Made by a program: the position numbers and the translations under genes. A stretch of DNA of 32,000 nucleotides from Balneola sp. (GTDB lineage Bacteria > Bacteroidota > Rhodothermia > Balneolales > Balneolaceae): assembly GCA_965267565.1 (NCBI GenBank), contig OZ254085.1, positions 368,605 to 400,604 on the forward strand. Reading direction: 5' to 3'. Positions within the stretch are counted from its first letter, which is position 1. Each line of letters starts with the position of its first letter. The notes below the pieces were generated by a model, which worked only from the letters and a program-made list of their open reading frames with translations, was not told the DNA's origin and did not search any database. Below are positions 2-23,113 of this stretch, one piece after another.

Positions 2-1225
2 GGAGTGTTCGTATTCTTTTTTGGTGATATAGCAGCTGATTCCCGTTACAATGATCCCCTCCCGGATACACTTGATGTGAGCGGTCAGGAATTTAACGGA
101 ACAGCCGGAGAAGTGGACTTTGGTGTTACCTACACAGCTGATGCTGATACCGGATGGAATCTGGTTGGTAATCCATTTGGTGCTACCATTGATTGGGATG
201 ACTCTCCTAACTGGACTAAAACGAATATTGAATCCACTATTTATATCTGGGATCCGGCTGCTAACGGAGGTAATGGCGAATATTTAACATGGAATGGAGT
301 AACAGGAACATTAGGAAGTGGACTCATCCCTCCTTTTCAGGGATTCTGGATTAAAGCCTCGGCCACAAGTCCGGAGTTGAAAGTTACCACTGATGCAAAA
401 ACGACCGGAGGTTCATTTCTTAGAAAAGAAGTTCAAAGTCAATCTCAATTTGATGAACCAACTTTTGAATTAGAGTTATCTGCAAACGGACTTCAAAAAA
501 CAGCCAGTTTTGTATTTACAGATAACGGGAAAAAAGGAAAAGATCCATTTGATGCCTTTGAATTACTTCCGCTAACCAACAATCGGCTTGAAATCTTTAG
601 CTTGCTTGGCGACAACACCCCACTTGTAATTAATAACCTACCCAGAGAACTTACTAATCGACTTATAATTCCTGTGGGTGTTAATGGGTTTCAAAATGGT
701 TTACCTATAAGTGGCGATTATTTACTTAGAGCTATTAATTTTGATAACATTCCGGATGAATGGCTTATCATTTTAACTGATAACGATACAGGTGAACAAA
801 TTGATTTAAGAATACAGGAAGAATACGATTTCTTCCACACTACTCGAGGAAAGGCAAAAGTTGCAAAACCTAACACTCAAAGAAAAGTAGTGAGTTCGCA
901 ATCATCAAATACGCGCTTTACGCTCAAAATCACTACTGAAGAAATTGAAGCCAACATACCCGAAACTGCTTTTTTATCTCAAAACTACCCAAACCCTTTT
1001 AACCCTGAAACAACCATTCCATTTGGCATTGATGTAGATTCAGATGTTACTCTTGAGGTATTCGATATCCTTGGCAGAAAAGTCAGTACAGTAATTAATC
1101 GTCGGTTAACTGCCGGAACTTATAATATCAATTTCCAAGCTCAGAACTTAGCAAGCGGAGTATACTTCTATAGACTTACTACCGAATCAAAAGTATTCAT
1201 AGAAAAACTTACACTCATAAAGTAA
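2..1225 (+). CDS. secreted protein, 5'-truncated by the window edge, with T9SS (Por) type-A C-terminal sorting domain
   Basis: The reading frame is open to the window start, so the GTG at 5 is unlikely to be the true start. The last ~80 aa (about nt 980-1222) show the T9SS CTD pattern: LSQNYPNPFNPETTIPF ... VTLEVFDILGRKV ... LASGVYFYRLTTES ... KLTLIK. Confidence 0.8.
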   Translation, partial: GVFVFFFGDIAADSRYNDPLPDTLDVSGQEFNGTAGEVDFGVTYTADADTGWNLVGNPFGATIDWDDSPNWTKTNIESTIYIWDPAANGGNGEYLTWNGVTGTLGSGLIPPFQGFWIKASATSPELKVTTDAKTTGGSFLRKEVQSQSQFDEPTFELELSANGLQKTASFVFTDNGKKGKDPFDAFELLPLTNNRLEIFSLLGDNTPLVINNLPRELTNRLIIPVGVNGFQNGLPISGDYLLRAINFDNIPDEWLIILTDNDTGEQIDLRIQEEYDFFHTTRGKAKVAKPNTQRKVVSSQSSNTRFTLKITTEEIEANIPETAFLSQNYPNPFNPETTIPFGIDVDSDVTLEVFDILGRKVSTVINRRLTAGTYNINFQAQNLASGVYFYRLTTESKVFIEKLTLIK

Positions 1226-1852: not shown

Positions 1853-2509
1853 ATGAAAAGCATTTTACTACATATCTTTTCATCTCTAAGAAGCATTAAG
1901 AATTTAAAGTTCATTGCTTCAATCAGTCTTATTTTTTCTGTGATTTCAGGATCAAATAACTCATCATCTTTTGTTTCTGCACAAGAAATCAATTTTGGAC
2001 AATACAGCAGTGCTTACAGCATTACATTATCAGAATTTATTCCTTCTGAGGACCTGGATTTTGGAACATTGATTCAGAATCAAGGACCTGCCTTAATTGA
2101 TTTGGTAAATGCAAAAGTTCTTACCCTTGAAGGTGTTAAATACCTGGATGTAATTGTTGATATCACTGCTGATAATTACTTATTACTGAACGGTGATTTA
2201 GGATGTGAAACAGATCCCACATGCAGAATACCATTTACTTTACAAGCTGCATATGCAAACAGAGGAAATAACAATGTAAATGAGTCCGTAAATATCTCTG
2301 TACTATCCAACGTAGCAACCGCTCAATTCCAAATATTAGAAAGAACCGACGGTCCTCCGGGCCCACCTCCTACTCCGGTCTATGAGGGTTATGATCCAAG
2401 CGTGTTCAATGAAACCGCCTATTTGTATATATATGGATCAGTAAACGTTGGGAATGTTGACGCTGGAAGTTACTCCTCGAGCATATCCGTTACCATAAAT
2501 TATGATTAG
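1853..2509 (+). CDS. secreted fibre/pilin-like subunit, paralog 2 (largest; Cys pair and poly-Pro insert)
   Basis: N-terminal hydrophobic leader ending VSA/QE. Family motifs EDLDFGTLIQNQG and AYLYIYGSVNVGNVDAGSYSSSISVTINYD-stop are present. Extra segments are GCETDPTC and GPPGPPPTP. Confidence 0.6.
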   Translation: MKSILLHIFSSLRSIKNLKFIASISLIFSVISGSNNSSSFVSAQEINFGQYSSAYSITLSEFIPSEDLDFGTLIQNQGPALIDLVNAKVLTLEGVKYLDVIVDITADNYLLLNGDLGCETDPTCRIPFTLQAAYANRGNNNVNESVNISVLSNVATAQFQILERTDGPPGPPPTPVYEGYDPSVFNETAYLYIYGSVNVGNVDAGSYSSSISVTINYD

Positions 2510-3035
2510 GTCAGCCATATTCATATTGATTAGCTCAATGTGGGTATTACTTAATCTGACCCCTGCAAATAGCCAGTTTATCAATCTCAGGCTTAAAATT
2601 GAACCGGAACTTAATGTAACCATTGAACAGTCACTTGATTTCGGTGAAGTTGTTACAAATTCAGGATACACGGAGGTTGAGCTTGGCGATGTAAGAATGG
2701 GGGTTTTTTCAATCAGAGCCTATTACACACAAAATATACAGATTTCAATGTCTGTTCCGGATGAACTTACAAATATTAATCCGGCCATAACTGATGAGAT
2801 TCCTTTGGAATTAGAGGCTTCTTATAATAATTCAGGTGTAAATGATATTAGTAAAGCCGTTCCTCTATCCGATAATCAGGGTATGATTTTAATATATGAA
2901 GGGGAAGAAAACGCTCCTCGACCAAATGATGTTTGGCAGGAAATGTTTTTATATGTGTATGGCGGAATAGATGTAGGGAATATACCAACAGGTACATACA
3001 CAGCAGAGGTAGTTGTGAGTGTTACCTATGAATAG
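2502..3035 (+). CDS. secreted fibre/pilin-like subunit, paralog 3
   Basis: The ATG overlaps the upstream stop by 8 nt, suggesting translational coupling. Leader is MIRSAIFILISSMWVLLNLTPANS/QF. Family motifs are QSLDFGEVVTNSG and MFLYVYGGIDVGNIPTGTYTAEVVVSVTYE-stop. Confidence 0.65.
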   Translation: MIRSAIFILISSMWVLLNLTPANSQFINLRLKIEPELNVTIEQSLDFGEVVTNSGYTEVELGDVRMGVFSIRAYYTQNIQISMSVPDELTNINPAITDEIPLELEASYNNSGVNDISKAVPLSDNQGMILIYEGEENAPRPNDVWQEMFLYVYGGIDVGNIPTGTYTAEVVVSVTYE

Positions 3036-3153: not shown

Positions 3154-3705
3154 ATGAAAAATCTAAAATACATACTCGCTGCTTTGGTATTTGTTGCTTT
3201 TGCTAACACTACCGCTGTTGCACAGGAAACGCAGGATATTAATACTTCTGCTGTTATCCTTGCTGATATTGCCCTTACTTTCGTTTCTGATGTAAGTTTC
3301 GGTAACATTCAGGACACAGGTTCTCCTGTACTTGACCCTCAAGGTACTAATACTGCTGATGTTGGTGGTGGTGCTACTTTTGGAAAATTCTCTATTTCAG
3401 CTGCTAACTCTACTCAATTAGTTATTGACTGGGATCAGGCCACTGTTACTTTAAGTGATGGAACTAATTCTATGACTTTTACTCCTGATGTTTCAGCTAA
3501 TAGTACTGACGCTATTGCATCATCAAGTGATGTAACTAAAGCTACTGCAAACGCAGCTACAGAAACATCCGGTGCTGGTGCATTGTTTGTTTACGTTGGT
3601 GGGAATTTAGGTACACTTTCAGGTCAGGCAGCAGGTACTTACACTTCTGATAGTGGTACTGCAGGTGCTTCTGGTGATTTAACTTTCACTGTTAATTACC
3701 AGTAA
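3154..3705 (+). CDS. secreted fibre/pilin-like subunit, paralog 4; candidate major subunit
   Basis: Signal peptide MKNLKYILAALVFVAFANTTAVA/QE. The mature part is strongly T/S/A/G-rich. Family motifs are SDVSFGNIQDTG and ALFVYVGGNLGTLSGQAAGTYTS...GDLTFTVNYQ-stop. The ...YQ end resembles the C-termini of the classical chaperone-usher pilins FimA and PapA. The gene has its own upstream gap and a strong terminator directly downstream. Confidence 0.7.
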   Translation: MKNLKYILAALVFVAFANTTAVAQETQDINTSAVILADIALTFVSDVSFGNIQDTGSPVLDPQGTNTADVGGGATFGKFSISAANSTQLVIDWDQATVTLSDGTNSMTFTPDVSANSTDAIASSSDVTKATANAATETSGAGALFVYVGGNLGTLSGQAAGTYTSDSGTAGASGDLTFTVNYQ

Positions 3706-3728
3706 TTAATACTTTGATAGAATTAAAA

Positions 3729-3756
3729 GTCTCGTTTCCAACGGGACTTTTTTTTT
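3729..3756 (+). terminator. rho-independent terminator after the paralog-4 subunit gene
   Basis: GTCTCGT-TTCCA-ACGGGAC forms a 7-bp stem (one G-U pair) followed by a run of 9 T, 24 nt after the stop codon. Confidence 0.75.
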
Positions 3757-3773: not shown

Positions 3774-3781
3774 TAAATTTG
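3774..3781 (+). promoter_or_regulatory. candidate -7 box TAAATTTG (TAnnTTTG) ahead of the chaperone-like gene
   Basis: The octamer matches the Bacteroidota -7 consensus and lies 49 nt upstream of ATG 3830, just after the terminator. No clear -33 TTG partner is present. Confidence 0.25.
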
Positions 3782-3829
3782 GTATTAATTCTTTACTTTA
3801 CTGCAATCATTTACAATAAAAAAGCAGTT

Positions 3830-4663
3830 ATGAAAATAAAAAGGGTTATAACGAGCGGCTTACTTTTGAGTATGATACTATCTGCGAGTCTTTTTTCGCA
3901 GGTGACCATTGCTCCTACAAATTTATTCCTTGATGATAACTCAAGGTTCGGAACATTTATGGTGATTAATAATTCGCAACAACCACAGGAAATCTCTATT
4001 GATTTCTTATTCGGATATTTTGACACCAACGAAAACGGCGACAAAAGTTTTGTCAGAGACAGTTCTGAAATTGAACAACAATATTCAATAGCAAGTAGCG
4101 TGAGGGCATTCCCTCAAAATTTTGTACTGCAAAGTGGCGATCGGCAAATTGTACGTTTGCGAATCAGTGCGCCACAGAATTTAGTTGATCAAACCTACTG
4201 GGCCCGGGTTAGAACTACTTCAACCCCTGAGAGCCCACCTTTAGAACTTGGAGCTTCTGAAACTGTGAATGCTCAAATTGGAGTTAAATTTGAACAAGTA
4301 ACAGGTTTATTCTACAAAGTTGGAGATACAAACACAGGGATAAACATAAATCAGATACGGACAAATTTGATTGATGAAAACACCATTCAAATTTTGTCTG
4401 ATTTTGAACGTACAGGGAATTCTCCCTTTTTGGGCACTGTAACTACTTCAATAATAAAAGATGGAAGAACAATCCGTACCTCTTCCCTTTCAACAAGCTT
4501 TTATTTTAATGGGACACATGGACATACTTTTAATATTGAAGATATGGAGCCCGGAAGTTATGAGATCAAAGTTGAATTTGTATCAGAGCGAAATGACATA
4601 TCAGATTCTGATTTAGTACAAATGACACCTTCAGTTTCAAGTACCACCGTTCAAATACAATAA
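3830..4663 (+). CDS. periplasmic pilus-assembly chaperone-like protein (PapD-like, divergent)
   Basis: The start is moved from TTG 3779 to ATG 3830. Signal peptide is MKIKRVITSGLLLSMILSASLFS/QV. The mature N-terminus VTIAPTNLFLDDNSRFGTFMVINNSQQPQEISIDF and the later segment FPQNFVLQSGDRQIVRLRISAP...QTYWARVRTTS follow the PapD_N strand pattern. Size and position, between the subunits and the large OM protein, also fit. Confidence 0.5.
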   Translation: MKIKRVITSGLLLSMILSASLFSQVTIAPTNLFLDDNSRFGTFMVINNSQQPQEISIDFLFGYFDTNENGDKSFVRDSSEIEQQYSIASSVRAFPQNFVLQSGDRQIVRLRISAPQNLVDQTYWARVRTTSTPESPPLELGASETVNAQIGVKFEQVTGLFYKVGDTNTGININQIRTNLIDENTIQILSDFERTGNSPFLGTVTTSIIKDGRTIRTSSLSTSFYFNGTHGHTFNIEDMEPGSYEIKVEFVSERNDISDSDLVQMTPSVSSTTVQIQ

Positions 4664-4699: not shown

Positions 4700-7684
4700 T
4701 TGAGAGATTGGTTCAAAATAGCAAAAGGATTATGCTTCATTCTCTTGTGTGTACTTCTAACACAGCCTGAAGCTATAGCTCAGAATACTTCTGATGAAAC
4801 TGAAGTATATCTCGAATTCAGGCACCGCGGTATTATTAACTCTGTTATCATCTCTTATTACAAAGATGATATTTTTTTCTTACCCGTTAACGAAATCTTC
4901 GACCTCCTCGATATAGAGAATAACCAGGATGGATTAACGATATCCGGGGATTTTTCATTAGAGCAAACCCCTTACGAAATAAATCTTCAGGATAATTTCA
5001 TAAGGTTTGGAGATAATCGATATCAAATCTCTTCAGAAGATTATTTAATCAAAGAAATAGACTATTACCTTAGACCCGGTTTATTCCTGGAAATATTTGA
5101 GTTAGAGTTCATGGTGGACTTCAGCAACCTTCGCCTGAATTTGGTCACTCAAAAAGAACTCCCGGTTGTCCAAAAAGTATTAAGAAATCAAAAAAGAAGA
5201 GTAGCTGATAATAACAGATTTTCTAACGAGAATTATGATTTAAAGTTTGCCCGCAAAAAACCCTTCATAGATGGAGGATTTGTAGACTATAACCTATCTG
5301 CAAACCTGTCCGATCAGATTAATATTTACAATTATAACAGTAATGTTGGATTACAGCTGTATGGAGGAGATCTTCAGGGTTCATTATTTGGAAGTTTTTC
5401 TGAAAACTTTTCCAATTTTGCTACTAATAATCTCCGCTGGAGAAGGTTTTTCAGGAACCAAAATCTTCTAACTAAGTTAACCATTGGTCAAACCCAAACA
5501 GATGGGGTTAACAGAAGCTCATACACAGGAATTCGTATTTCGAATGAACCTGTTGAGCCTCGTCTTCTGTTTGATGAATTTGAAGTTCAGGGAAGAACTT
5601 TACCCGAATCGGAAGTGGAGTTATATCTCAACAATGCATTGATAGACTTTCAGGTGTCTGATCAGGCTGGAAATTATCGGTTCTTAGCCCCTCTTACTTA
5701 TGGTTCAACACAATTGGATTTAAGAATTTATGGACCAACGGGGCAAATTATTGAAAGATCAAACCGTATTCAGGTTCCTTTTAACTTTCAGCCCGCAGGC
5801 GTTTTCAATTATGTTGCAAATATTGGGGAGCTCGATAATCCATTAATCGGTACAACAGATCGGGTATTAACTGCACAGGGTTCGGGATCATATGGTTTGT
5901 CTGAGTGGCTTACAGCAAAAGCAGGTATTGAATACTACGAGGGTTTTCATACATCAAGACCTACTTTTATTTCTTCTCTGTCGTCCAGAATTCTTACAAA
6001 TTATATTTTTACGCTTGAAGGCGCTACAGACGCTTTTTATCGATCAACTTTGAGCGCTATTTACCCAAATTCTGCAAGTTTTAATATAGATTTTATAGAC
6101 TATTCTTCCGGATTTAGTATTTATAACCCATCTAATGACGACAAAAGATTAAGTACTACTCTATTCTACCCTTTTACTTTTGGTTCAACCCCTTTTAATT
6201 TCAGAGTTTCTGCTTTTTCACGTTTTGGTGAAACATCCAATATTACCACATTCAGAGTGGATGCAAACTCACGTATTGACAAATTTAATTTCAGAGTCGG
6301 TTATACGGATCGCTATTTTGGTGAATTTGATATTTTGTCCCCAACAAGTTTATCGGCCATTGAAAACTCTGTTACTTATACCATTTCAAGAGGAAGAAAC
6401 ATTCCTTCTTATTTAAAGGGTACTTTTCTAAGAGCTCAAATGAGATATTTGCCTGTTCAAAAGGAAATTGAATCAGCTCAGTTTTTTATTTCGCGAAGTA
6501 TTTTCAAAAACGGAAGGTTTCAACTTTCAGTAGGCAGAAACTTCCTCAACCAATTCAGTTCGGTTAGATTTAGTTTCACCATAGATCTAAACAAAGTCAG
6601 ATCGAGCTCCAATTTCAGTTCAATAAGAGATAATTATAATATTACGCAAAACATCCGCGGTTCTGTTGGTTACGATACCAACTACAATAATTTCTTATTT
6701 ACCAGCCGTGAGCAAGTAGGAAGATCCGGCACTGCAGTAAGACTTTTTGTAGACAATAATAACAATGGGACTTTTGAAGAAGATGAAGACGATCCAATAA
6801 GTGAAAATGCTCTTCGGGTTACCAGATCCGGCGCCATGAACCACACAAAAAACGGCATTCTTTACTTCACCCAAATGCAGCCCTACTTCTATTACAACAT
6901 GGAATTAAATAAAGGCGCAATTAGAAATCCAATGTTGGTTCCGGAATTCGAAAACTTTGGATTGATTACTGATCCAAATCGCTTCAAAAAAGTAGAAATC
7001 CCTTTTTATATGTCAGGTGTGGTTGAAGGAACAGTAGAAAGATTATATGAAAATGGAAGACAATCAGGAATAGCAGGATTAAAAGTTTTGATTTCTTCTA
7101 ATGACGGAGACTTTTTGAAAGAAATCCGAACGTTCTCGGACGGTAGTTTTTATTCATTTGAAATACCTCCGGGAGACTATACAATCAGAGTTGATCAGAG
7201 TCAGTTAGAAATATTGGACGCAAAAGTACGCGACAGTCTTCCTACTTTTGAGGTGAGAGCAATTCCAGAAGGGGATTTTATTGAAGGTTTAAATATTGTA
7301 CTTGTTCCTGAAAACTTCGACGATTCGGATCTTGAAGTAGTTCGTGAAACTACCATTCTGGCTGATCTTGAGGGCAGTTCAGAACTACTCAATTTTGAAG
7401 CTGATTTACAGGATAAAGTGGACGAAACTCTACGCTTGATTGTTCAGGCTCAGAACGCCTTTTATAACAAAAATTTAAATCAAGCATTAGATTTTGTTAA
7501 TCAATCTTTGGAAATCTTTGAAACAGCCCAAGGATATGCCTTGAAAGGCAGTTTATTGTACTTAAAGGGTGATAAAGAAGAAGCTCAAAAAAGCTGGAAT
7601 ATGGCAACAAGATTTAATCCAGATATTTATATTCCTGAGGTAGAAACTTTGGACCAAATCATCAAAACAGAACCAGGCGATTAA
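4700..7684 (+). CDS. large outer-membrane protein in the usher position, with C-terminal CarboxypepD_reg-like beta-sandwich and TPR-like tail
   Basis: TTG start (uncertain) and signal peptide GLCFILLCVLLTQPEAIA/QN. The ~700-aa central region is rich in alternating aromatic/polar beta-strand patterns. About nt 7016-7310 encodes GVVEGTVERLYENGRQSGIAGLKVLISSNDGDFLKEIRTFSDGSFYSFEIPPGDYTIRVD. About nt 7429-7623 encodes a TPR-like helical tail. Confidence 0.5.
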   Translation: MRDWFKIAKGLCFILLCVLLTQPEAIAQNTSDETEVYLEFRHRGIINSVIISYYKDDIFFLPVNEIFDLLDIENNQDGLTISGDFSLEQTPYEINLQDNFIRFGDNRYQISSEDYLIKEIDYYLRPGLFLEIFELEFMVDFSNLRLNLVTQKELPVVQKVLRNQKRRVADNNRFSNENYDLKFARKKPFIDGGFVDYNLSANLSDQINIYNYNSNVGLQLYGGDLQGSLFGSFSENFSNFATNNLRWRRFFRNQNLLTKLTIGQTQTDGVNRSSYTGIRISNEPVEPRLLFDEFEVQGRTLPESEVELYLNNALIDFQVSDQAGNYRFLAPLTYGSTQLDLRIYGPTGQIIERSNRIQVPFNFQPAGVFNYVANIGELDNPLIGTTDRVLTAQGSGSYGLSEWLTAKAGIEYYEGFHTSRPTFISSLSSRILTNYIFTLEGATDAFYRSTLSAIYPNSASFNIDFIDYSSGFSIYNPSNDDKRLSTTLFYPFTFGSTPFNFRVSAFSRFGETSNITTFRVDANSRIDKFNFRVGYTDRYFGEFDILSPTSLSAIENSVTYTISRGRNIPSYLKGTFLRAQMRYLPVQKEIESAQFFISRSIFKNGRFQLSVGRNFLNQFSSVRFSFTIDLNKVRSSSNFSSIRDNYNITQNIRGSVGYDTNYNNFLFTSREQVGRSGTAVRLFVDNNNNGTFEEDEDDPISENALRVTRSGAMNHTKNGILYFTQMQPYFYYNMELNKGAIRNPMLVPEFENFGLITDPNRFKKVEIPFYMSGVVEGTVERLYENGRQSGIAGLKVLISSNDGDFLKEIRTFSDGSFYSFEIPPGDYTIRVDQSQLEILDAKVRDSLPTFEVRAIPEGDFIEGLNIVLVPENFDDSDLEVVRETTILADLEGSSELLNFEADLQDKVDETLRLIVQAQNAFYNKNLNQALDFVNQSLEIFETAQGYALKGSLLYLKGDKEEAQKSWNMATRFNPDIYIPEVETLDQIIKTEPGD

Positions 7685-7709: not shown

Positions 7710-9563
7710 ATGGATAGGTTATATACTTTAATCATTAATAAAATACCTTTTAAGCAATATGTATTAGCTTTCACAGCTATTGTTATGTGTTTTTCAATCG
7801 CTCAGGTTCAGGCACAAACAAGTTCAGGGGCAGGCTTTTCACAATCTGATGATTTACAAATTGCAACCATAGAGCAAAGTTACGATTCTCAGGTTATCCA
7901 GGTAATATCTAATCATTTTGACAGAAAAAAATTCTTTGTTGATGTTAACATCGACGCTGATATTATCCAGGATACCATCACAACTCAAAATCAAATTCTG
8001 ACCTCAAGAAATCAGAACATTGCTCTTCCGGGACTTCCTTTTCTACCGGATGATAACTTGCAGAATGTCGGACCTACAACCGGTAATGAGTCAGCGTTAA
8101 GCCAAAATGTTACCAGAAGGCTTATACTGAATAATATCATAGTAAATATTTATGCTGATACCAGCTTTTCTGTACCTGAACTGGATTTTATGAGGCAAAT
8201 TGCGGGGTTTGCTGCAAAAACAAATCCTGCGAGAGGCGACCAAATTAATATTACTCAGCTTGCTATACCTGATCCTGATTTTGAGCCTATTCCGATCGAA
8301 TCTACTAACATTAATGAACAAGTAGCAGAGCCTGAGACTTTCTTCTCTTCTTTAGGTGATTATATTACTGAATTCATTTTAATAGGCTTGTTTATTTTGT
8401 CTCTCATCGCAAACAGTGTTTTTTACAGAGATAAACAATCAAGTTCTAACCTCCGGCTTGAAAGAGCAAGTTTTAACTTGGAAGGAAATTTCCCGGGAAA
8501 TAACAATCCCTCCGGAGATCCTTTTGCGGGCGAAAGCCGCTCCTTAAATATAACTACTTCATCAGAAGAAGAGTTTTCAATGAAAGAGTTTGATGAATTG
8601 GCTAAAAACTTTTTTACTAAACCCGAAGAAACGGCTCTTCTTTTAGAATACTGGATTGATGAAGATCCGGTAAATGGAGCAACAAAAGCTGCGGAAATTA
8701 TCGCATCGGGGGATTCTACGCTGATCCGTTCCATTAAAAAAGATTTGCCTGAGGAAAAATATGAGGAAATAGTTCAGGCTTTAGAAGAACTATCTCCAAT
8801 GACTATTGAAGAGAAAAACAAAGCAGCTAAATATTTTAATACACTCATTAAAGAAGGTGATAACAAAGAGTCTAAAAAGAAGAATTACGCAAATTTAGGC
8901 CTCTTTAAATTTTTAGAGCATGTTACCAATCACCAGCTTATGGAGCTTCTCAAGAATGAAACAAATCAAACTGCAGCTCTTGTAATTGATTATCTGCCGG
9001 AAGATAAAGCCGCTGAATTGCTGAATAAATTGGATGGCGAAAAAGCTGCTGAGATCATGCTCAAGATGTCAACTTTACACAATCTCACCTATAAACAACA
9101 TAGCTTTATATCGTCCCGACTTTTTGATAAGGTAGTAGAGATCAGAGACGTTGAAAAACAGGAAAAAATGGGAATGGAAAACATCCTCCCAATCCTTGAA
9201 AAGCTACCAGTAAAAGAACAGAAAAAATATATTGAGCAGATTAAAGCATCCGGTTCTGTATTGGGAGAAATGCTTGAGAAACAATTCCTGACAATTGATC
9301 AGATTCCTGATCTTGATAATGAAATAATCAAAGAAGGTGTTGAGGCTTTAAACACTCCTACTCTTTTAGACTCTTTAGTTGGCTTGGATAAAGAAATTAT
9401 AGATAAAATATTGGCTGTACGCCCAAAAAGAGAGCAGAAATTAATACGTATGGAACTTGAAGAAATGGAAGGATCAGATGGTACTGATCAGGCAAAATCT
9501 AAATTGCTAAGCTCTTTAAGAAAATCCTACACCGAACATCTTCAGGAAGAAGTCGTTGAATGA
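7710..9563 (+). CDS. membrane protein with FliF-like periplasmic/TM part fused to FliG-like (N/M/C) cytoplasmic domains
   Basis: There are two hydrophobic segments, aa ~17-35 and aa ~217-239. The periplasmic stretch RRLILNNIIVNIYADTSFSVPELDFMRQIAGFAAKTNPARGDQINITQL resembles the end of the FliF/YscJ ring-building region. On the cytoplasmic side, LLKNETNQTAALVIDYLPEDKAAELLNKLDGEKAAEIMLKMSTL resembles the FliG middle-domain EHPQ region. ILAVRPKREQKLIRMELEEMEG...AKSKLLSSLRK resembles the FliG C-terminal torque-helix region. Confidence 0.55.
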   Translation: MDRLYTLIINKIPFKQYVLAFTAIVMCFSIAQVQAQTSSGAGFSQSDDLQIATIEQSYDSQVIQVISNHFDRKKFFVDVNIDADIIQDTITTQNQILTSRNQNIALPGLPFLPDDNLQNVGPTTGNESALSQNVTRRLILNNIIVNIYADTSFSVPELDFMRQIAGFAAKTNPARGDQINITQLAIPDPDFEPIPIESTNINEQVAEPETFFSSLGDYITEFILIGLFILSLIANSVFYRDKQSSSNLRLERASFNLEGNFPGNNNPSGDPFAGESRSLNITTSSEEEFSMKEFDELAKNFFTKPEETALLLEYWIDEDPVNGATKAAEIIASGDSTLIRSIKKDLPEEKYEEIVQALEELSPMTIEEKNKAAKYFNTLIKEGDNKESKKKNYANLGLFKFLEHVTNHQLMELLKNETNQTAALVIDYLPEDKAAELLNKLDGEKAAEIMLKMSTLHNLTYKQHSFISSRLFDKVVEIRDVEKQEKMGMENILPILEKLPVKEQKKYIEQIKASGSVLGEMLEKQFLTIDQIPDLDNEIIKEGVEALNTPTLLDSLVGLDKEIIDKILAVRPKREQKLIRMELEEMEGSDGTDQAKSKLLSSLRKSYTEHLQEEVVE

Positions 9564-10105
9564 TGGGTTTATCTGGGAAAAACCATATCAAGTATCTTTT
9601 GTATGTAATTGGTATATCACTTTGCATTGAGGTGGGATGTACATCTTCGAATCAGGTTTCAGAAACTCCGCAAGAACAAAATGATACTGCAAATATTGAC
9701 GATGGTTTAAATCAGCAAATCGTTAATGAAAATAATAAAAGATCGGATGAAGCTATTCGCGACTCTTTGAATGCTGTTTTAAAAGACGAAATTCATGCTC
9801 AATATCAGTCGCAGGCTAACCGGCTTACTACATTTTATATATTGGCACAACAACGGTTTTATAGTGGAGATTACCAACAAGCACTTTTTTTGATCAACAG
9901 AGCTGCAAATATTAAAGAGTCCGCTGATGTACTGGCTTTAAGAGGCAGCATTTATTTTGGCTTGGGATCAATTGAAAACTTCGTTTCCAACTGGAGAGAA
10001 GCATTAGAGAAAGACCGGAACGTACCAATACCGCCCTCACCCCCGATCATTGAAGAGCTAAAAAATCAGGGACTAATAAATGAAAATCTTGAACGTAACT
10101 TTTAG
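9560..10105 (+). CDS. TPR-like periplasmic protein (possible lipoprotein)
   Basis: The ATGA overlap with the upstream stop suggests translational coupling. A hydrophobic leader ends in ...IEVGC (Cys27; atypical lipobox). The helical segment FYILAQQRFYSGDYQQALFLINRAANIKESADVLALRGSIYFGLGSIENFVSNWREALEKD is TPR-like and paralogous to the tail of the 994-aa protein. Confidence 0.5.
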   Translation: MMGLSGKNHIKYLLYVIGISLCIEVGCTSSNQVSETPQEQNDTANIDDGLNQQIVNENNKRSDEAIRDSLNAVLKDEIHAQYQSQANRLTTFYILAQQRFYSGDYQQALFLINRAANIKESADVLALRGSIYFGLGSIENFVSNWREALEKDRNVPIPPSPPIIEELKNQGLINENLERNF

Positions 10106-10114
10106 AAATTTTAA

Positions 10115-10912
10115 ATGAAGATTTCATTTTCTAACATCATCAGCTTTTTAGTTTCATTGGGAATCCTTGTGTGGGGTTCTTTGATGGTGATTGGTTTTGC
10201 AGAATACAATGTAATCCCTTCAGACTTTGAGTTCCTTAACCTGCCAAGTTTAGCTATTGTATTCGGAGGAATAACAGCAAGCGTATTTATTAGCTATCCC
10301 TTTCGAAAAGTTGTAAGAGCATTTCGTGAAAGCTTTCGCCTGTTCTCCCAAAGTAATATCGACGATAAACTGCTTGAGCAAGACATTGAAAATATTCTTG
10401 AGTGGCAAAAGATGATTCGAATCGACCGAAACGCTGCTGTAGCGCAGTTAAGTGAGCAATACAGCGGACAATTTGAAGGATATTTGTTTTCGATACTGGA
10501 TACCAATTACTCCACAGAGGAGTTCAGAGAATTAGGTGAAATCAATATTCAGGAAACTTATACTCGGCAACAGCAAATAAATCAGATTATGGTAAGTATG
10601 GGTAAAACCGCACCGGTATTTGGTATGCTGGGAACTTTGTTTGGTCTGATTGTCATCCTTTCCGGTTTTAATGAAGTGGATTCTCTCCTTTCCGGTCTCG
10701 CAGCTGCCTTAATGACCACTTTATATGGGATTTTAATTGGGAATTTCATTTTCACACCAATGGCAAAGAAGATGAATAATATTGCTTCGCTACAGTACTT
10801 CCGGGAAAAAATGATTTTAGAAGGCGTTTTACTGATACAGGAGCAAAAATCTTCTCTTCAAATTTACGACAAGCTTAAAGCTCACATGCATCGAAATGTT
10901 CAACAATTTTAA
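10115..10912 (+). CDS. MotA/PomA-type stator A subunit (MotA/TolQ/ExbB proton-channel family)
   Basis: Four-TM layout with a ~100-aa cytoplasmic loop between TM2 and TM3. TM3 is TAPVFGMLGTLFGLIVIL. TM4, LAAALMTTLYGILIGNFIFTPMAKKM, closely follows the PomA/MotA pattern (ALLTTLYG....N..F.P.A.K). Confidence 0.8.
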   Translation: MKISFSNIISFLVSLGILVWGSLMVIGFAEYNVIPSDFEFLNLPSLAIVFGGITASVFISYPFRKVVRAFRESFRLFSQSNIDDKLLEQDIENILEWQKMIRIDRNAAVAQLSEQYSGQFEGYLFSILDTNYSTEEFRELGEINIQETYTRQQQINQIMVSMGKTAPVFGMLGTLFGLIVILSGFNEVDSLLSGLAAALMTTLYGILIGNFIFTPMAKKMNNIASLQYFREKMILEGVLLIQEQKSSLQIYDKLKAHMHRNVQQF

Positions 10913-10926
10913 GGTACTGCCAAGCT

Positions 10927-12663
10927 TTGAAAGTTGATGATCCATATAATAAAAAACAGTCATTATATCCCGAGCAGGAATTAGAATCTGCTGATGATGA
11001 TAGCTGGCAGGTCAGTTATCTCGATATAATCACTATTATTCTGGGCTTTCTCATTATCCTGCTATCCGTTTCTTCTTTAAAAGAAATAGAAACCTTTTCG
11101 GTATCCGATCTTTTTAAATCATCTGAAAATGAGACGGAGTTCATCACCACTCCAATCGAGCAAATTAAAGAACGTTTAGAGGCACTTCTTGCACAGGAAA
11201 TTGCAGATGGACAATTAGAAATCTATCGGGAGCTCAATGATGTGAAAATTCGCTTCAGAAGTGATGATTTATATCAATCGGGAAGTGCCGAAATTCAACC
11301 CGAAGCAAGTGCTTTGTTAAACCGAGTTCTGGCAGCTTTTAAACTAATCGAGTATGACGATTTTGAAATTGATGTGGAAGGTCACACTGATAACGTTCCT
11401 ATTACTACCGCTGCTTATCCATCCAACTGGGAACTTTCTACCGCTCGTGCCTCCAATGTCGTAAAATATTTCAATGAATCAGGAATTAAAGACGATAGGC
11501 TGAAGGCTTCCGGGTATGCTTCTTCTCGTCCTGTTGTGGAATTCGATGATCGGGGAAACCCTGTGGCTGCTTCAAAAAGTAAAAACAGAAGAATTGTATT
11601 GCGACTGTTTTATTCCAATCCTGATCAGATGTTAGCTGACCAAACAGAAGCAGTAGAAGAAATAACCGAAGAACCTATTGAAACTCCTGAGAATGAGCAG
11701 ATTCTCCCTGAAAATTCGCGGGAAACTGAAGCAGAGGAAGAGCCTCAAAACAACGAGCCAATTGCTCAAATCGAAAATTCCGCTTCACCAGAAGTAGTCG
11801 AGGAAGAAACTCCGGAGTCTGTTAACGAAGTGCAGGAATCTCAGCCTGAGACTATTAAAAGTAATACTTCGACTCCATCCACTCCACCCTCTTCCGGAAA
11901 TGAAGATAATATACAAGGATGCAGATACTCGGTTCAGGTGGGCAGTTATGAATCATTCGCAAACAGTATAAGAGTTGCTAACAGAACGGAAAATCAAACT
12001 TCACGATCTTTCGAAATCGTTTACAACAACTTTCTCTTCTCTGTTCGAAGTAATGCCTTCAATTCACTAACCCGTGCTTACCGTTTTAATGATCAATTTT
12101 CTGATGCCAATGATTCAGAAGAACCTTCTGCAGTTATTTATCAGTGTTATCAACAGGACTATCAGTATCCTAATTCGCTTAATTATGTTATTCAATTAGG
12201 CTTTTTCCAGAACGAACAAAATGCGCTTAATTTTCAACAAACACTTGCAAACGAATATGGTATTGACGCCAAAATTGAGTCATTATCAGTTCAGGCTTAT
12301 ACAGTTTTCGCCGGACCATATTCTGACAGGAAAGAAGCTCAGCAAAAAATTAGTGAGTTTCGTCAAAATGATATTCTGAGCAACGTTTTTCTTAAATATG
12401 ATCCCAAAACTGTTTCTGATTATTCCTACGATTATCAAATAATCGCAGGATCTTATCGAAGTAAAACCAGAGCTTTTCAAATTTCTCAAAGCCTGCAAGA
12501 TCTCCTAAATATTAGTTCTGAAGTGATCACAAAAGAGGATGGAAATTCTTATGTAATTACTCAATCTCAGAATAACTGGGATGATACACTAATAAGACTT
12601 GAGCAGTTGGCAGGAAGTAATCTAAACCTCACTCCTGTTATTTATTTGACCGAGAGGAGTTAA
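10927..12663 (+). CDS. MotB-type stator B subunit (OmpA-like peptidoglycan-binding domain) with acidic linker and three C-terminal SPOR-like repeats
   Basis: TTG start (uncertain). The N-terminus SWQVSYLDIITIILGFLIILL is a MotB-like TM with a conserved Asp. The OmpA-like domain is FRSDDLYQSGSAEI...VEGHTDNVPI...SNWELSTARASNVVKYF...NRRIVLRL. A Glu/Pro/Thr-rich linker spans about nt 11620-11916. SPOR-like repeats begin YSVQVGSYES, YVIQLGFFQNEQNALNFQ...YTVFAGPYSDRKEAQ and YQIIAGSYRSKTRAFQ. Confidence 0.8.
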   Translation: MKVDDPYNKKQSLYPEQELESADDDSWQVSYLDIITIILGFLIILLSVSSLKEIETFSVSDLFKSSENETEFITTPIEQIKERLEALLAQEIADGQLEIYRELNDVKIRFRSDDLYQSGSAEIQPEASALLNRVLAAFKLIEYDDFEIDVEGHTDNVPITTAAYPSNWELSTARASNVVKYFNESGIKDDRLKASGYASSRPVVEFDDRGNPVAASKSKNRRIVLRLFYSNPDQMLADQTEAVEEITEEPIETPENEQILPENSRETEAEEEPQNNEPIAQIENSASPEVVEEETPESVNEVQESQPETIKSNTSTPSTPPSSGNEDNIQGCRYSVQVGSYESFANSIRVANRTENQTSRSFEIVYNNFLFSVRSNAFNSLTRAYRFNDQFSDANDSEEPSAVIYQCYQQDYQYPNSLNYVIQLGFFQNEQNALNFQQTLANEYGIDAKIESLSVQAYTVFAGPYSDRKEAQQKISEFRQNDILSNVFLKYDPKTVSDYSYDYQIIAGSYRSKTRAFQISQSLQDLLNISSEVITKEDGNSYVITQSQNNWDDTLIRLEQLAGSNLNLTPVIYLTERS

Positions 12664-22747: not shown

Positions 22748-23113
22748 TCAACTTACCAGTTTAAGTGATTTATCAAGGTCTCCGATTGTAAAAGGCTTAA
22801 CTATAAGATCTGCAAATTCGGTATGCTTAGCTCTTTCAAAATTGAGTCGATCAGAATTACCTGTGAGATAAATCACATGTGGGTTTATAGTTTCTTTTAT
22901 TTTTGCAACGGTGTCGATGCCATCCATTTGCCCTTTCAAGCGTATATCCATTAGCAAGATATCAGGTTTTTCAGATCTTGCAATTTCGACTGCATCTTCA
23001 CCTGAAACTGCTTTACCAGCTACTAAAAACCCTAATTCTTTGACCATGTTTTCCACGACCAAAGAAATAATCATATCGTCCTCTACAATTAGTACTTTTT
23101 TTTGCTTGCTCAT
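22748..23113 (-). CDS. stand-alone response-regulator receiver domain (CheY-like)
   Basis: KVLIVEDDMII...PDILLMDIRL...VIYLTGNSD...KPF. The protein is 121 aa with no output domain. Confidence 0.85.
   Translation of the reverse strand: MSKQKKVLIVEDDMIISLVVENMVKELGFLVAGKAVSGEDAVEIARSEKPDILLMDIRLKGQMDGIDTVAKIKETINPHVIYLTGNSDRLNFERAKHTEFADLIVKPFTIGDLDKSLKLVS

Follow-up and report, generated by a model that had tools for sequence, protein, structure and literature searches.

A natural FliF–FliG fusion gene beside MotAB-type stator genes in a chaperone–usher operon of Balneola sp.

The present analysis concerns a stretch of 32,000 nucleotides (nt) from Balneola sp. (Balneolaceae; GenBank assembly GCA_965267565.1, contig OZ254085.1, positions 368,605 to 400,604 of the forward strand), referred to below as the window, and in particular a gene at 7710..9563 whose product of 617 amino acids (aa) joins a truncated FliF head-to-tail, in a natural fusion, to a complete FliG (positions are those of the window, and features lie on the + strand unless marked otherwise). 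A previous reading of these letters, made without database searches (the sequence-only reading), had proposed a natural mini-FliF/FliG fusion at this site. This proposal is borne out for the FliG part by Pfam and profile searches and for the FliF part by AlphaFold2 and Foldseek together with profiles of relatives, and every peptide string quoted in support of it is present in the open reading frame (ORF). What the sequence-only reading had missed is that the fusion gene is part of a chaperone–usher pilus operon, in which genes for pilin-like proteins, a protein in the chaperone position and an outer-membrane usher are followed by the fusion gene and by genes for a TPR protein, MotA and MotB.

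The FliF–FliG fusion protein

The fusion protein is identical to a database protein and has at least 86 full-length homologues of ~600 aa, which are annotated only as "FliG C-terminal domain-containing protein" or "FliG"; it is therefore the product of a real, conserved gene and not of a chance ORF. An antisense ORF of 103 aa inside the gene (8423-8734, − strand) lies within the conserved coding frame, is unsupported and is probably spurious. For the comparisons below, a family profile of 36 sequences and a broad set of 50 diverse relatives were used.

Hydropathy places two hydrophobic segments in the protein, at aa 17-35 and aa 219-239 (nt 8364-8426), in agreement with the topology first proposed, the transmembrane (TM) helix now being set at aa 219-239. 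The resulting layout comprises a signal-peptide-like N-terminal segment (aa 1-35, 7710..7814), a periplasmic domain of ~180 aa, one TM helix (8364..8426) that is collinear with TM2 of E. coli FliF and represents its equivalent, and a cytoplasmic part of ~378 aa. The flanks of the TM helix are acidic before it (net −4) and basic after it (net +1), which fits an N-out/C-in orientation with a periplasmic N-terminal and a cytoplasmic C-terminal part. FliF has two TM helices with both termini in the cytoplasm; when the fusion protein is held against this pattern by hydropathy and conservation, the second helix is clear and the first segment resembles a signal peptide. Since this segment ends in AQVQA|Q, with an "AQ" that is conserved across the family and an invariant Q36, it is probably a cleavable signal peptide rather than an uncleaved FliF TM1, an equivalent of TM1 being the alternative.

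All three FliG domains are found in the cytoplasmic part above the Pfam gathering cut-offs, namely a FliG_N-like domain at aa ~321-400 (8670..8909; PF14842, 33.3 bits, cut-off 25), a FliG_M-like domain at aa ~401-485 (8910..9164; PF14841, 51.3 bits, cut-off 25) and a FliG_C-like domain at aa ~486-605 (9165..9524; PF01706, 35.2 bits, cut-off 23.3). When the 36-sequence family profile was run against the PDB, it recovered the FliG-MC fragment of Thermotoga maritima over 210 residues (E 2.6e-21) as well as 5tdy_B, a FliG_N domain crystallised with the FliF tail (E 0.0017), and the three FliG-like blocks noticed by eye in the sequence-only reading are well founded on these grounds. A direct profile comparison of the family with E. 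coli FliG (hhalign) gave a probability of 92.7%, and among the 50 relatives FliG_C was detected in every one, FliG_M in 46 and FliG_N in 35. At the level of the FliG equivalog model (TIGR00207), the fusion protein falls short with 60.9 bits versus a cut-off of 226.7. MgtE_N is matched as well (38.7 bits, cut-off 25.9), nested inside the stronger FliG_M/C match, and a score of this size is expected from the homologous fold. The sequence-only reading had itself named a generic MgtE_N-type helical repeat as the finding that would speak against it; such a repeat alone is not what was found, as homology to FliG goes well beyond it, with FliG N, M and C all above cut-off and the CBS and MgtE domains absent.

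The equivalent of the torque helix could be located by alignment to FliG at aa 571-586 (RPKREQKLIRMELEEM; 9420..9467). Its R574 aligns with R281 of E. coli, is invariant in the close family and is present in 48/50 diverse relatives, while E582 aligns with D289 of E. coli, does not vary within the Balneolaceae family and recurs in 24/50 of the broader set, so that the conservation of charged torque-helix residues, which the sequence-only reading had marked for checking, is nearly complete for the arginine and confined to about half of the relatives for the acidic residue. The FliM-binding motif EHPQ reads ETNQ here (aa 417-420), as had been noted before and as the alignment of relatives confirms; the Glu alone is kept, in 36 of the 50 diverse relatives. 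Neither fliM nor fliN was found in the 32-kb window or in the related loci inspected, and with EHPQ lost and neither gene nearby, the earlier suggestion of a rotor lacking a FliM/FliN C-ring agrees with the data.

The periplasmic part (aa 36-215, 7815..8354) resembles RBM3, the ring-building domain of FliF, according to its AlphaFold2 model, Foldseek searches and the alignment of the family hidden Markov model (HMM) with residues 347-432 of E. coli FliF. The model has a mean predicted local distance difference test score (pLDDT) of 72.5 with core blocks above 90, and runs through a helix, a long strand, a disordered insert, a second long strand, a helix and a final strand (alpha-beta-[insert]-beta-alpha-beta). 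When it was compared with the PDB by Foldseek, each of the 18 best matches was a FliF RBM3/S-ring structure (probability 1.0, E 5e-7 to 2e-5). The next fold lay ~1000-fold behind in E-value; OsmC came at E 3e-3 or worse, followed by SpoIIIAG (0.011) and PrgK (model 2y9j, 0.065). Profiles of distant relatives point in the same direction, in that the Pfam family YscJ_FliF_C (PF08345), whose model covers residues 253-437 of Salmonella FliF (PMC6079021), is matched by 11 of the 50 diverse relatives at E ≤0.01, two of them (P0214 with 38.0 bits and P0212 with 26.7 bits) above the curated cut-off of 23.8. Furthermore, an HMM built from all 50 members of the broad family scored 22.6 bits against E. 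coli FliF, the best of 2000 shuffles reaching 6.6. The RGD motif that had first drawn attention to a FliF-like periplasmic end lies at aa 175-177 (8232..8240), between helix 2 and strand 3, and has its counterpart in ...EKRGDSLNVV of E. coli FliF; together with the structural and profile matches, it lends that suggestion solid support, including the comparison with FliF RBM3 by AlphaFold and Foldseek that the sequence-only reading had recommended.

Within the insert that corresponds to the beta-collar of FliF, the motif PGLPFLP (aa 107-113, 8028..8048) is invariant in the 36 family members and at least 90% conserved in the 50 diverse relatives; its pLDDT is low, and we propose that this LPGLPxLP element serves as a partner-binding tip. 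PF01514 (YscJ_FliF), which represents RBM1-RBM2, was not matched by the protein, in which only ~180 periplasmic residues are available; RBM1 and RBM2, the domains that house the type III export gate, are absent from the fusion protein.

The two halves appear to meet at a natural seam. The last part of the FliF moiety (aa 292-320, 8583..8669) carries the motif P305...A309.LL..W315I..D of the FliG-binding FliF tail, identified by a tail HMM and by conservation, with P305, A309 and W315 conserved among the 50 relatives. Against an in-silico concatenation of E. coli FliF and FliG, the broad-family HMM gave a single continuous alignment of 116.9 bits, which leads from FliF residue 347 through the RGD motif (EKRGDSLNVV), TM2 and the linker to the extreme C-terminal tail, and on across the 552|553 junction into FliG_N; the tail in this alignment reads DPRVVALVIRQWINNDHE in E. 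coli and KPEETALLLEYWIDEDPV in the fusion protein. An HMM of the tail alone scored 12.0 bits against residues 534-552 of E. coli FliF, its 19 C-terminal positions, with 2000 shuffles at or below 6.0, and a profile of the tail plus FliG_N scored 21.9 bits on the concatenation versus 8.7 on FliG alone and 5.1 on FliF alone. An alignment that crosses the FliF|FliG junction in one piece means that the FliG-binding tail has been kept, and the junction is best described as a clean read-through of fliF into fliG, in which the kept tail is predicted still to bind. In E. coli, the genes fliF and fliG share an overlap of 8 nt, so that a fusion of this kind would be an easy genetic event.

Operon partners and their distribution

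Directly downstream, and translationally coupled to the fusion gene by an ATGA overlap in which its start overlaps the fusion stop by 4 nt, follows the gene for a secreted TPR protein of 181 aa (9560..10105) that is paralogous to the C-terminal TPR of the usher described below. The sequence-only reading had placed a stator next to the fusion, and genes for MotA and MotB indeed begin two genes downstream of it. MotA (265 aa, 10115..10912) is a stator subunit of the flagellar type as judged by NCBIfam, PDB profile searches and conservation: the MotP/MotA/PomA models of NCBIfam were matched at E 1e-31 to 1e-27 versus E 0.02-0.17 for ExbB/TolQ, all below the equivalog cut-offs, and flagellar MotA structures in the PDB (8ucs/6ysf) were matched at E 3e-24 over aa 9-257, that is, nearly the full length. 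The MotB-like subunit (578 aa, 10927..12663) combines a plug (MotB_plug, 25.3 bits, cut-off 24), a TM Asp within SYLDIIT, an OmpA-like peptidoglycan-binding domain (65.7 bits), an acidic linker and two SPOR domains. The plug, the SYLDIIT Asp and the pore motifs of MotA are at least 90% conserved over 46-47 related loci. MotB is unusually long owing to its acidic low-complexity linker and two SPOR domains, a domain type that binds septal or denuded peptidoglycan; the MotB proteins of distant relatives are plain and measure ~227 aa. An assignment of these genes to the Zorya anti-phage system was rejected, PADLOC giving generic ZorB/MotB similarity only, with no ZorA and no other Zor genes.

On the upstream side, the fusion gene is separated by a gap of 25 nt, with no terminator-like site in it, from the gene for an outer-membrane usher of 994 aa (4700..7684). 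A FimD/PapC fold was assigned to this protein from its AlphaFold2 model (pLDDT 81), which Foldseek matched to FimD at E 4.8e-29 and to PapC at E 1e-18 to 2e-22 over 700-940 columns, and from Pfam, whose Usher family was found in 3 of 35 usher homologues (best E 5.9e-6). The usher bears an extra C-terminal TPR (aa ~883-987), the paralogue of the free TPR protein; in Gracilimonas, usher homologues of 1171-1549 aa have C-terminal SPOR domains in place of TPR. The chaperone position ahead of the usher is occupied by a secreted protein of 294 aa (3779..4663), a putative pilus chaperone by position and synteny. Four paralogous secreted proteins of the Pfam family DUF4402 (1295-1813, 1853-2509, 2502-3035 and 3154-3705) are putative pilins according to synteny and to their C-terminal consensus GxYxGDITxTVxYD, with Gly at position −14 and Tyr at position −2. 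A Gly(−14) together with a penultimate Tyr is the classical C-terminal signature of chaperone–usher pilins. Directly 3' of the fourth pilin-like gene lies a terminator-like hairpin with a 12-bp stem and a T-run (3725..3751), which may act as an attenuator that sets the ratio of pilins to assembly machinery.

The very beginning of the window (5-1225) encodes the C-terminal end of a very large cargo protein of the type IX secretion system (T9SS; Por_Secre_tail). Relatives of this protein measure ~2500 aa and carry Laminin_G_3 and Invasin_D3 domains, and in ~60% of the Balneolaceae loci the cargo gene immediately precedes those for the pilins. In three more distant Balneolaceae loci, four extra genes (products of ~137, 200, 440-476 [DUF4900] and 130 aa) stand between the T9SS cargo and DUF4402 genes (L002:635-3498, L003:603-3395, L004:1-1563); they are absent from the window.

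The order pilins, chaperone, usher, fusion, TPR, MotA, MotB is fixed in 39 Balneolaceae species genomes wherever the flank suffices to see it, and is kept even with different flanking genes. These genomes are labelled Balneola, Balneolaceae, Gracilimonas, Aliifodinibius or Balneolales, save for one metagenome-assembled genome labelled Roseivirgaceae, and include those of the cultured Gracilimonas tropica DSM 19535 (locus L043) and Balneola sp. EhC07; the type strain of Balneola vulgaris is not among the 39 loci, which may reflect the search pattern. The spread of the fusion architecture, which the sequence-only reading had suggested surveying, was assessed by using the periplasmic domain as the query of an exhaustive profile search, which yielded 142 cluster representatives (138 newly retrieved and 4 known from before). 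The full architecture of periplasmic domain, TM helix and FliG N/M/C was present in 98 of the 138 new representatives and in 102 of all 142.

Beyond the Balneolaceae operon set, TPR, MotA and MotB follow downstream at 8/8 loci (L003-L006, L009, L050, L051, L053), in L009 with the TPR fused to the rotor protein itself, and the order fusion, TPR, MotA, MotB holds in loci at 18-40% identity. One subfamily has no usher and encodes instead an extra protein of ~360 aa between the fusion and TPR genes (L050:11846-12922, L051:9232-10329, L005:2550-3650), which carries a signal peptide and combines an alpha/beta domain with a barrel-like C-terminal region ending in ...RF or ...RL, and belongs to no Pfam family; other distant loci have an usher homologue upstream of the fusion. 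Around 25 complete short forms of 250-385 aa consist of a TM helix, often a LysM domain, an RBM3-like domain and a second TM helix, without FliG. One of these short forms, a LysM-RBM3 protein of 322 aa, is encoded between an usher homologue and the TPR protein, with no MotAB nearby (L007:534-5080 and L008). Neighbouring T9SS cargo genes suggest that the distant members belong to bacteria of the Fibrobacteres–Chlorobi–Bacteroidetes (FCB) group.

As regards flagella in this family, Balneola, Fodinibius, Rhodohalobacter and G. tropica DSM 19535 were reported without flagellar assembly genes, and Aliifodinibius species with only part of the set, true fliF, fliG and flgB being among the genes they hold; the Balneolaceae are described as essentially non-motile, their incomplete flagellar pathways being read as gradual loss (PMC9909488). 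G. tropica is listed as non-motile, and flagella and motility are cited for B. vulgaris (PMC5167729). More generally, a rotor protein is kept in 11% of non-motile species (PMC12199754). In keeping with a non-flagellar setting, no flagellar gene besides those of the operon was found in the 32-kb window (a result for the window, not for the whole genome). Literature searches returned no paper on DUF4402, on natural FliF–FliG fusions or on FliG/MotAB linked to chaperone–usher systems.

A candidate rotor–stator and competing explanations

The explanation that we favour with moderate confidence is that of a rotor–stator coupled to the outer membrane, i.e., a flagellar-type motor reused for a non-flagellar purpose. 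The RBM3-like domain would oligomerise the fusion protein into a ring in the inner membrane, with a FliG ring on the cytoplasmic face and a short periplasmic collar that would carry the invariant LPGLPxLP at its tip. Stators of the MotA5B2 type would be held to peptidoglycan by the OmpA and SPOR domains of MotB, and would use the flow of ions through the channel with the conserved MotB Asp to exert force on the torque helix of FliG_C (R574, E582), so that the ring rotates, probably in one direction since there is no switch complex. More speculatively, the tip of the collar might be gripped by the co-conserved TPR protein and the paralogous C-terminal TPR of the usher, such that ion-motive force could be carried over the periplasm to the chaperone–usher fibre machine and there be put to use in extruding, rotating or gating the fibre; usher-less relatives might pass it on to another outer-membrane barrel protein. 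Going further, one may tentatively picture the rotor–stator as an inner-membrane engine that spins, extrudes or tensions a pilus via the TPR-tethered usher, and its usher-less relatives as a general mini-motor for outer-membrane machines of the FCB group, or alternatively regard the module as resembling a pre-flagellar rotor–stator core, but these pictures are doubtful at present.

Several observations weigh against a rotor–stator of this kind. The window's periplasmic domain had no match in direct searches of Pfam (E up to 10) or of PDB sequences, and hhalign of the family against the single E. coli FliF sequence gave a probability of 2%; the link to FliF comes from the structure model and from profiles of distant relatives, and of the HMM searches that the sequence-only reading had called for, the one for FliF domains succeeded with relatives (YscJ_FliF_C) and failed with the protein itself. 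In the torque helix, the position of E. coli D288 is taken by a hydrophobic residue/Met, Leu or Ser in the fusion family, and the loop charges of MotA (R90/E98) align poorly. LysM, RBM3-like and FliG domains occur on one polypeptide with MotAB adjacent in P0149 (L053:799-3000), and P0103 and P0201 are likewise LysM-FliG proteins; free rotation is hard to reconcile with a periplasmic, peptidoglycan-binding LysM on a supposed rotor. On the pilus side, a profile search of the PDB with the DUF4402 proteins gave no match to solved pilins, and neither Pfam, PDB profile searches nor hhalign against FimC revealed PapD/FimC homology in the 294-aa protein. In the classical view, chaperone–usher assembly draws on no energy source, so that the need for a motor is not evident. 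The output is also not obvious swimming, as G. tropica carries the cluster and is described as non-motile. Ring formation, rotation and a contact between ring, TPR and usher are steps that we infer from homology.

The strongest rival, to which we assign a low probability, assumes a non-rotating ring or smaller oligomer in which FliG is a fixed platform for the docking and activation of MotAB, and which delivers Tol-Pal/TonB-like cyclic work to an outer-membrane protein, for example for gating or localisation of the usher. It would accommodate a peptidoglycan-tethered "rotor", to which the LysM variants with FliG and adjacent MotAB point, as well as the LysM-RBM3 proteins that still pair with usher and TPR without any FliG, and the SPOR domains on MotB and on the Gracilimonas ushers would indicate a fixed septal or peptidoglycan location. 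The layout of stator, energised inner-membrane protein, TPR and outer-membrane partner moreover resembles tolQRA-tolB-pal-cpoB. However, the protein of the window has no LysM domain according to Pfam, its RBM3 fold specifically matches the ring-forming domain of FliF, and the retention of full FliG N/M/C, of the torque Arg/Glu and of a full-length flagellar-type MotA exceeds what docking would need. It is somewhat less probable still that fusion, TPR, MotA and MotB form a self-contained rotor–stator module with an output of its own, whose pilus neighbourhood reflects co-regulation or history. The distant relatives in which the ~360-aa protein takes its place in the module and no usher is present speak for such independence, as does the strong terminator-like hairpin that separates the pilin genes from the remainder of the operon. 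Yet gene order is strictly fixed in the 39 species genomes, the 25-nt gap between usher and fusion contains no terminator-like site, and the usher has acquired a TPR paralogous to the module's own TPR protein; the trio of usher, RBM3 protein and TPR even exists alone, and the usher-less relatives have, in the equivalent place, a secreted protein with a barrel-like C-terminus.

Explanations that remain within the flagellum are far less probable. That the fusion provides the MS/C-ring of a true but reduced flagellum whose other genes lie elsewhere in the genome is very unlikely, even though engineered FliF–FliG fusions are reportedly functional in Salmonella. Engineered fusions do assemble rings (PMC6079021), B. 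vulgaris is described as flagellated and motile (PMC5167729), and Aliifodinibius genomes hold many true flagellar genes; the fusion, on the other hand, lacks the RBM1/RBM2 region of the export gate and the EHPQ motif, no flagellar gene is nearby in the window, the operon partners are pilus genes, and Balneola and G. tropica are reported without assembly genes (PMC9909488), the latter being non-motile (PMC5167729). Slightly more improbable again is a functionless, decaying remnant of an ancestral flagellar cluster. The gradual loss read from incomplete pathways in the family (PMC9909488) and the rotor proteins that persist in 11% of non-motile species (PMC12199754) would be in line with decay, but the reading frame is intact, the same architecture recurs in 102/142 representatives, functional residues are invariant, synteny is fixed with translational coupling, and conserved features have been newly acquired (the LPGLPxLP motif and the TPR partners). 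A pseudogene or relic was accordingly rejected on the conservation of residues, gene order and stator motifs.

Relation to known systems

Compared with FliF and FliG of E. coli or Salmonella, the fusion protein has the same RBM3/collar with RGD, TM2, linker, P...A.L...WI..D tail, FliG N/M/C domains and torque Arg/Glu, and its domain order is collinear with the succession of fliF and fliG in E. coli. It differs from them in being a single polypeptide without RBM1/RBM2, in which a probable signal peptide replaces TM1. The collar insert is much shorter than in flagellar FliF and bears the novel invariant LPGLPxLP, and in contrast to flagellar FliG, EHPQ is lost, the TIGR00207 score lies below the cut-off and surrounding flagellar genes are lacking. 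The closest parallels are the engineered or spontaneous full-frame FliF–FliG fusions of Salmonella and Vibrio (PDB 8z4d/8z4g), in which the FliF C-terminus is likewise joined directly to the FliG N-terminus; 8z4d is among the PDB matches of both the family profile and the periplasmic model. Whereas these laboratory fusions contain full-length FliF within a complete flagellum, the fusion described here is a natural one with a truncated FliF, and it occurs in genomes for which published surveys list no flagellar assembly genes. The alpha-beta-beta-alpha-beta RBM fold with an insertion between strands is shared with SpoIIIAG and the injectisome proteins PrgK/YscJ, with matches much weaker than those to FliF RBM3, and unlike the fusion, these proteins have no FliG part and no associated stator.

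With GldLM/PorLM, TolQR-TolA, ExbBD-TonB, AglRQS and ZorAB, the operon has in common an inner-membrane stator of the MotAB family that is tied to a periplasm-spanning or outer-membrane process, here in a lineage of the FCB group with a T9SS as well (Por_Secre_tail cargo); GldLM/PorLM are the motors of T9SS gliding. The MotA beside the fusion is of the flagellar type, unlike ExbB/TolQ and ZorA, and to our knowledge none of GldLM/PorLM, TolQR, ExbBD, AglRQS and ZorAB uses a rotor ring of the FliG/FliF type. The pilus genes parallel FimD/PapC systems and archaic Csu-type pili in the N-terminal domain, barrel, plug and C-terminal domains of the usher, in the Gly(−14)/Tyr(−2) subunits and in the order of pilins, chaperone and usher; they depart from FimD/PapC systems by the C-terminal TPR added to the usher and by a chaperone and pilins that are not detectably PapD- or Fim-like. 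We know of no chaperone–usher system that is linked to an inner-membrane motor. While the component domains and the logic of a FliG ring driven by MotAB are already known, their combination here is far from any described system, and the fusion would surprise specialists of the flagellar motor.

From these comparisons we infer a "minimal rotor", i.e., a naturally minimal rotor of the flagellar type that would do without export apparatus, rod and FliM/FliN switch. Such a rotor would open a long-standing question to direct tests, namely how small a rotor can be and still be driven by MotAB, and which requirements FliF and FliG place on one another; G. tropica DSM 19535 and Balneola sp. EhC07 are carriers already in culture. 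By this example, "orphan" rotor genes need not be debris where flagellar assembly genes are reported to be lacking, but can form part of a separate, conserved machine. Should the link to the usher prove mechanical, chaperone–usher fibre assembly could no longer be regarded as a process that never uses an energy source, and the ion-driven motors of the envelope (flagellum, Tol, Ton, Gld, Agl, Zor) would be joined by another. The picture of a pilus engine, if true, would make this the first energised chaperone–usher pathway, and its fibre would found a new class among rotary surface appendages.

Two genes related to chemotaxis proteins were seen apart from the features discussed so far. A stand-alone CheY-like receiver protein is encoded in the window at 22748-23113 (− strand), ~10 kb off the cluster, and in the distant locus L005 a gene for a CheR methyltransferase follows that of MotB.

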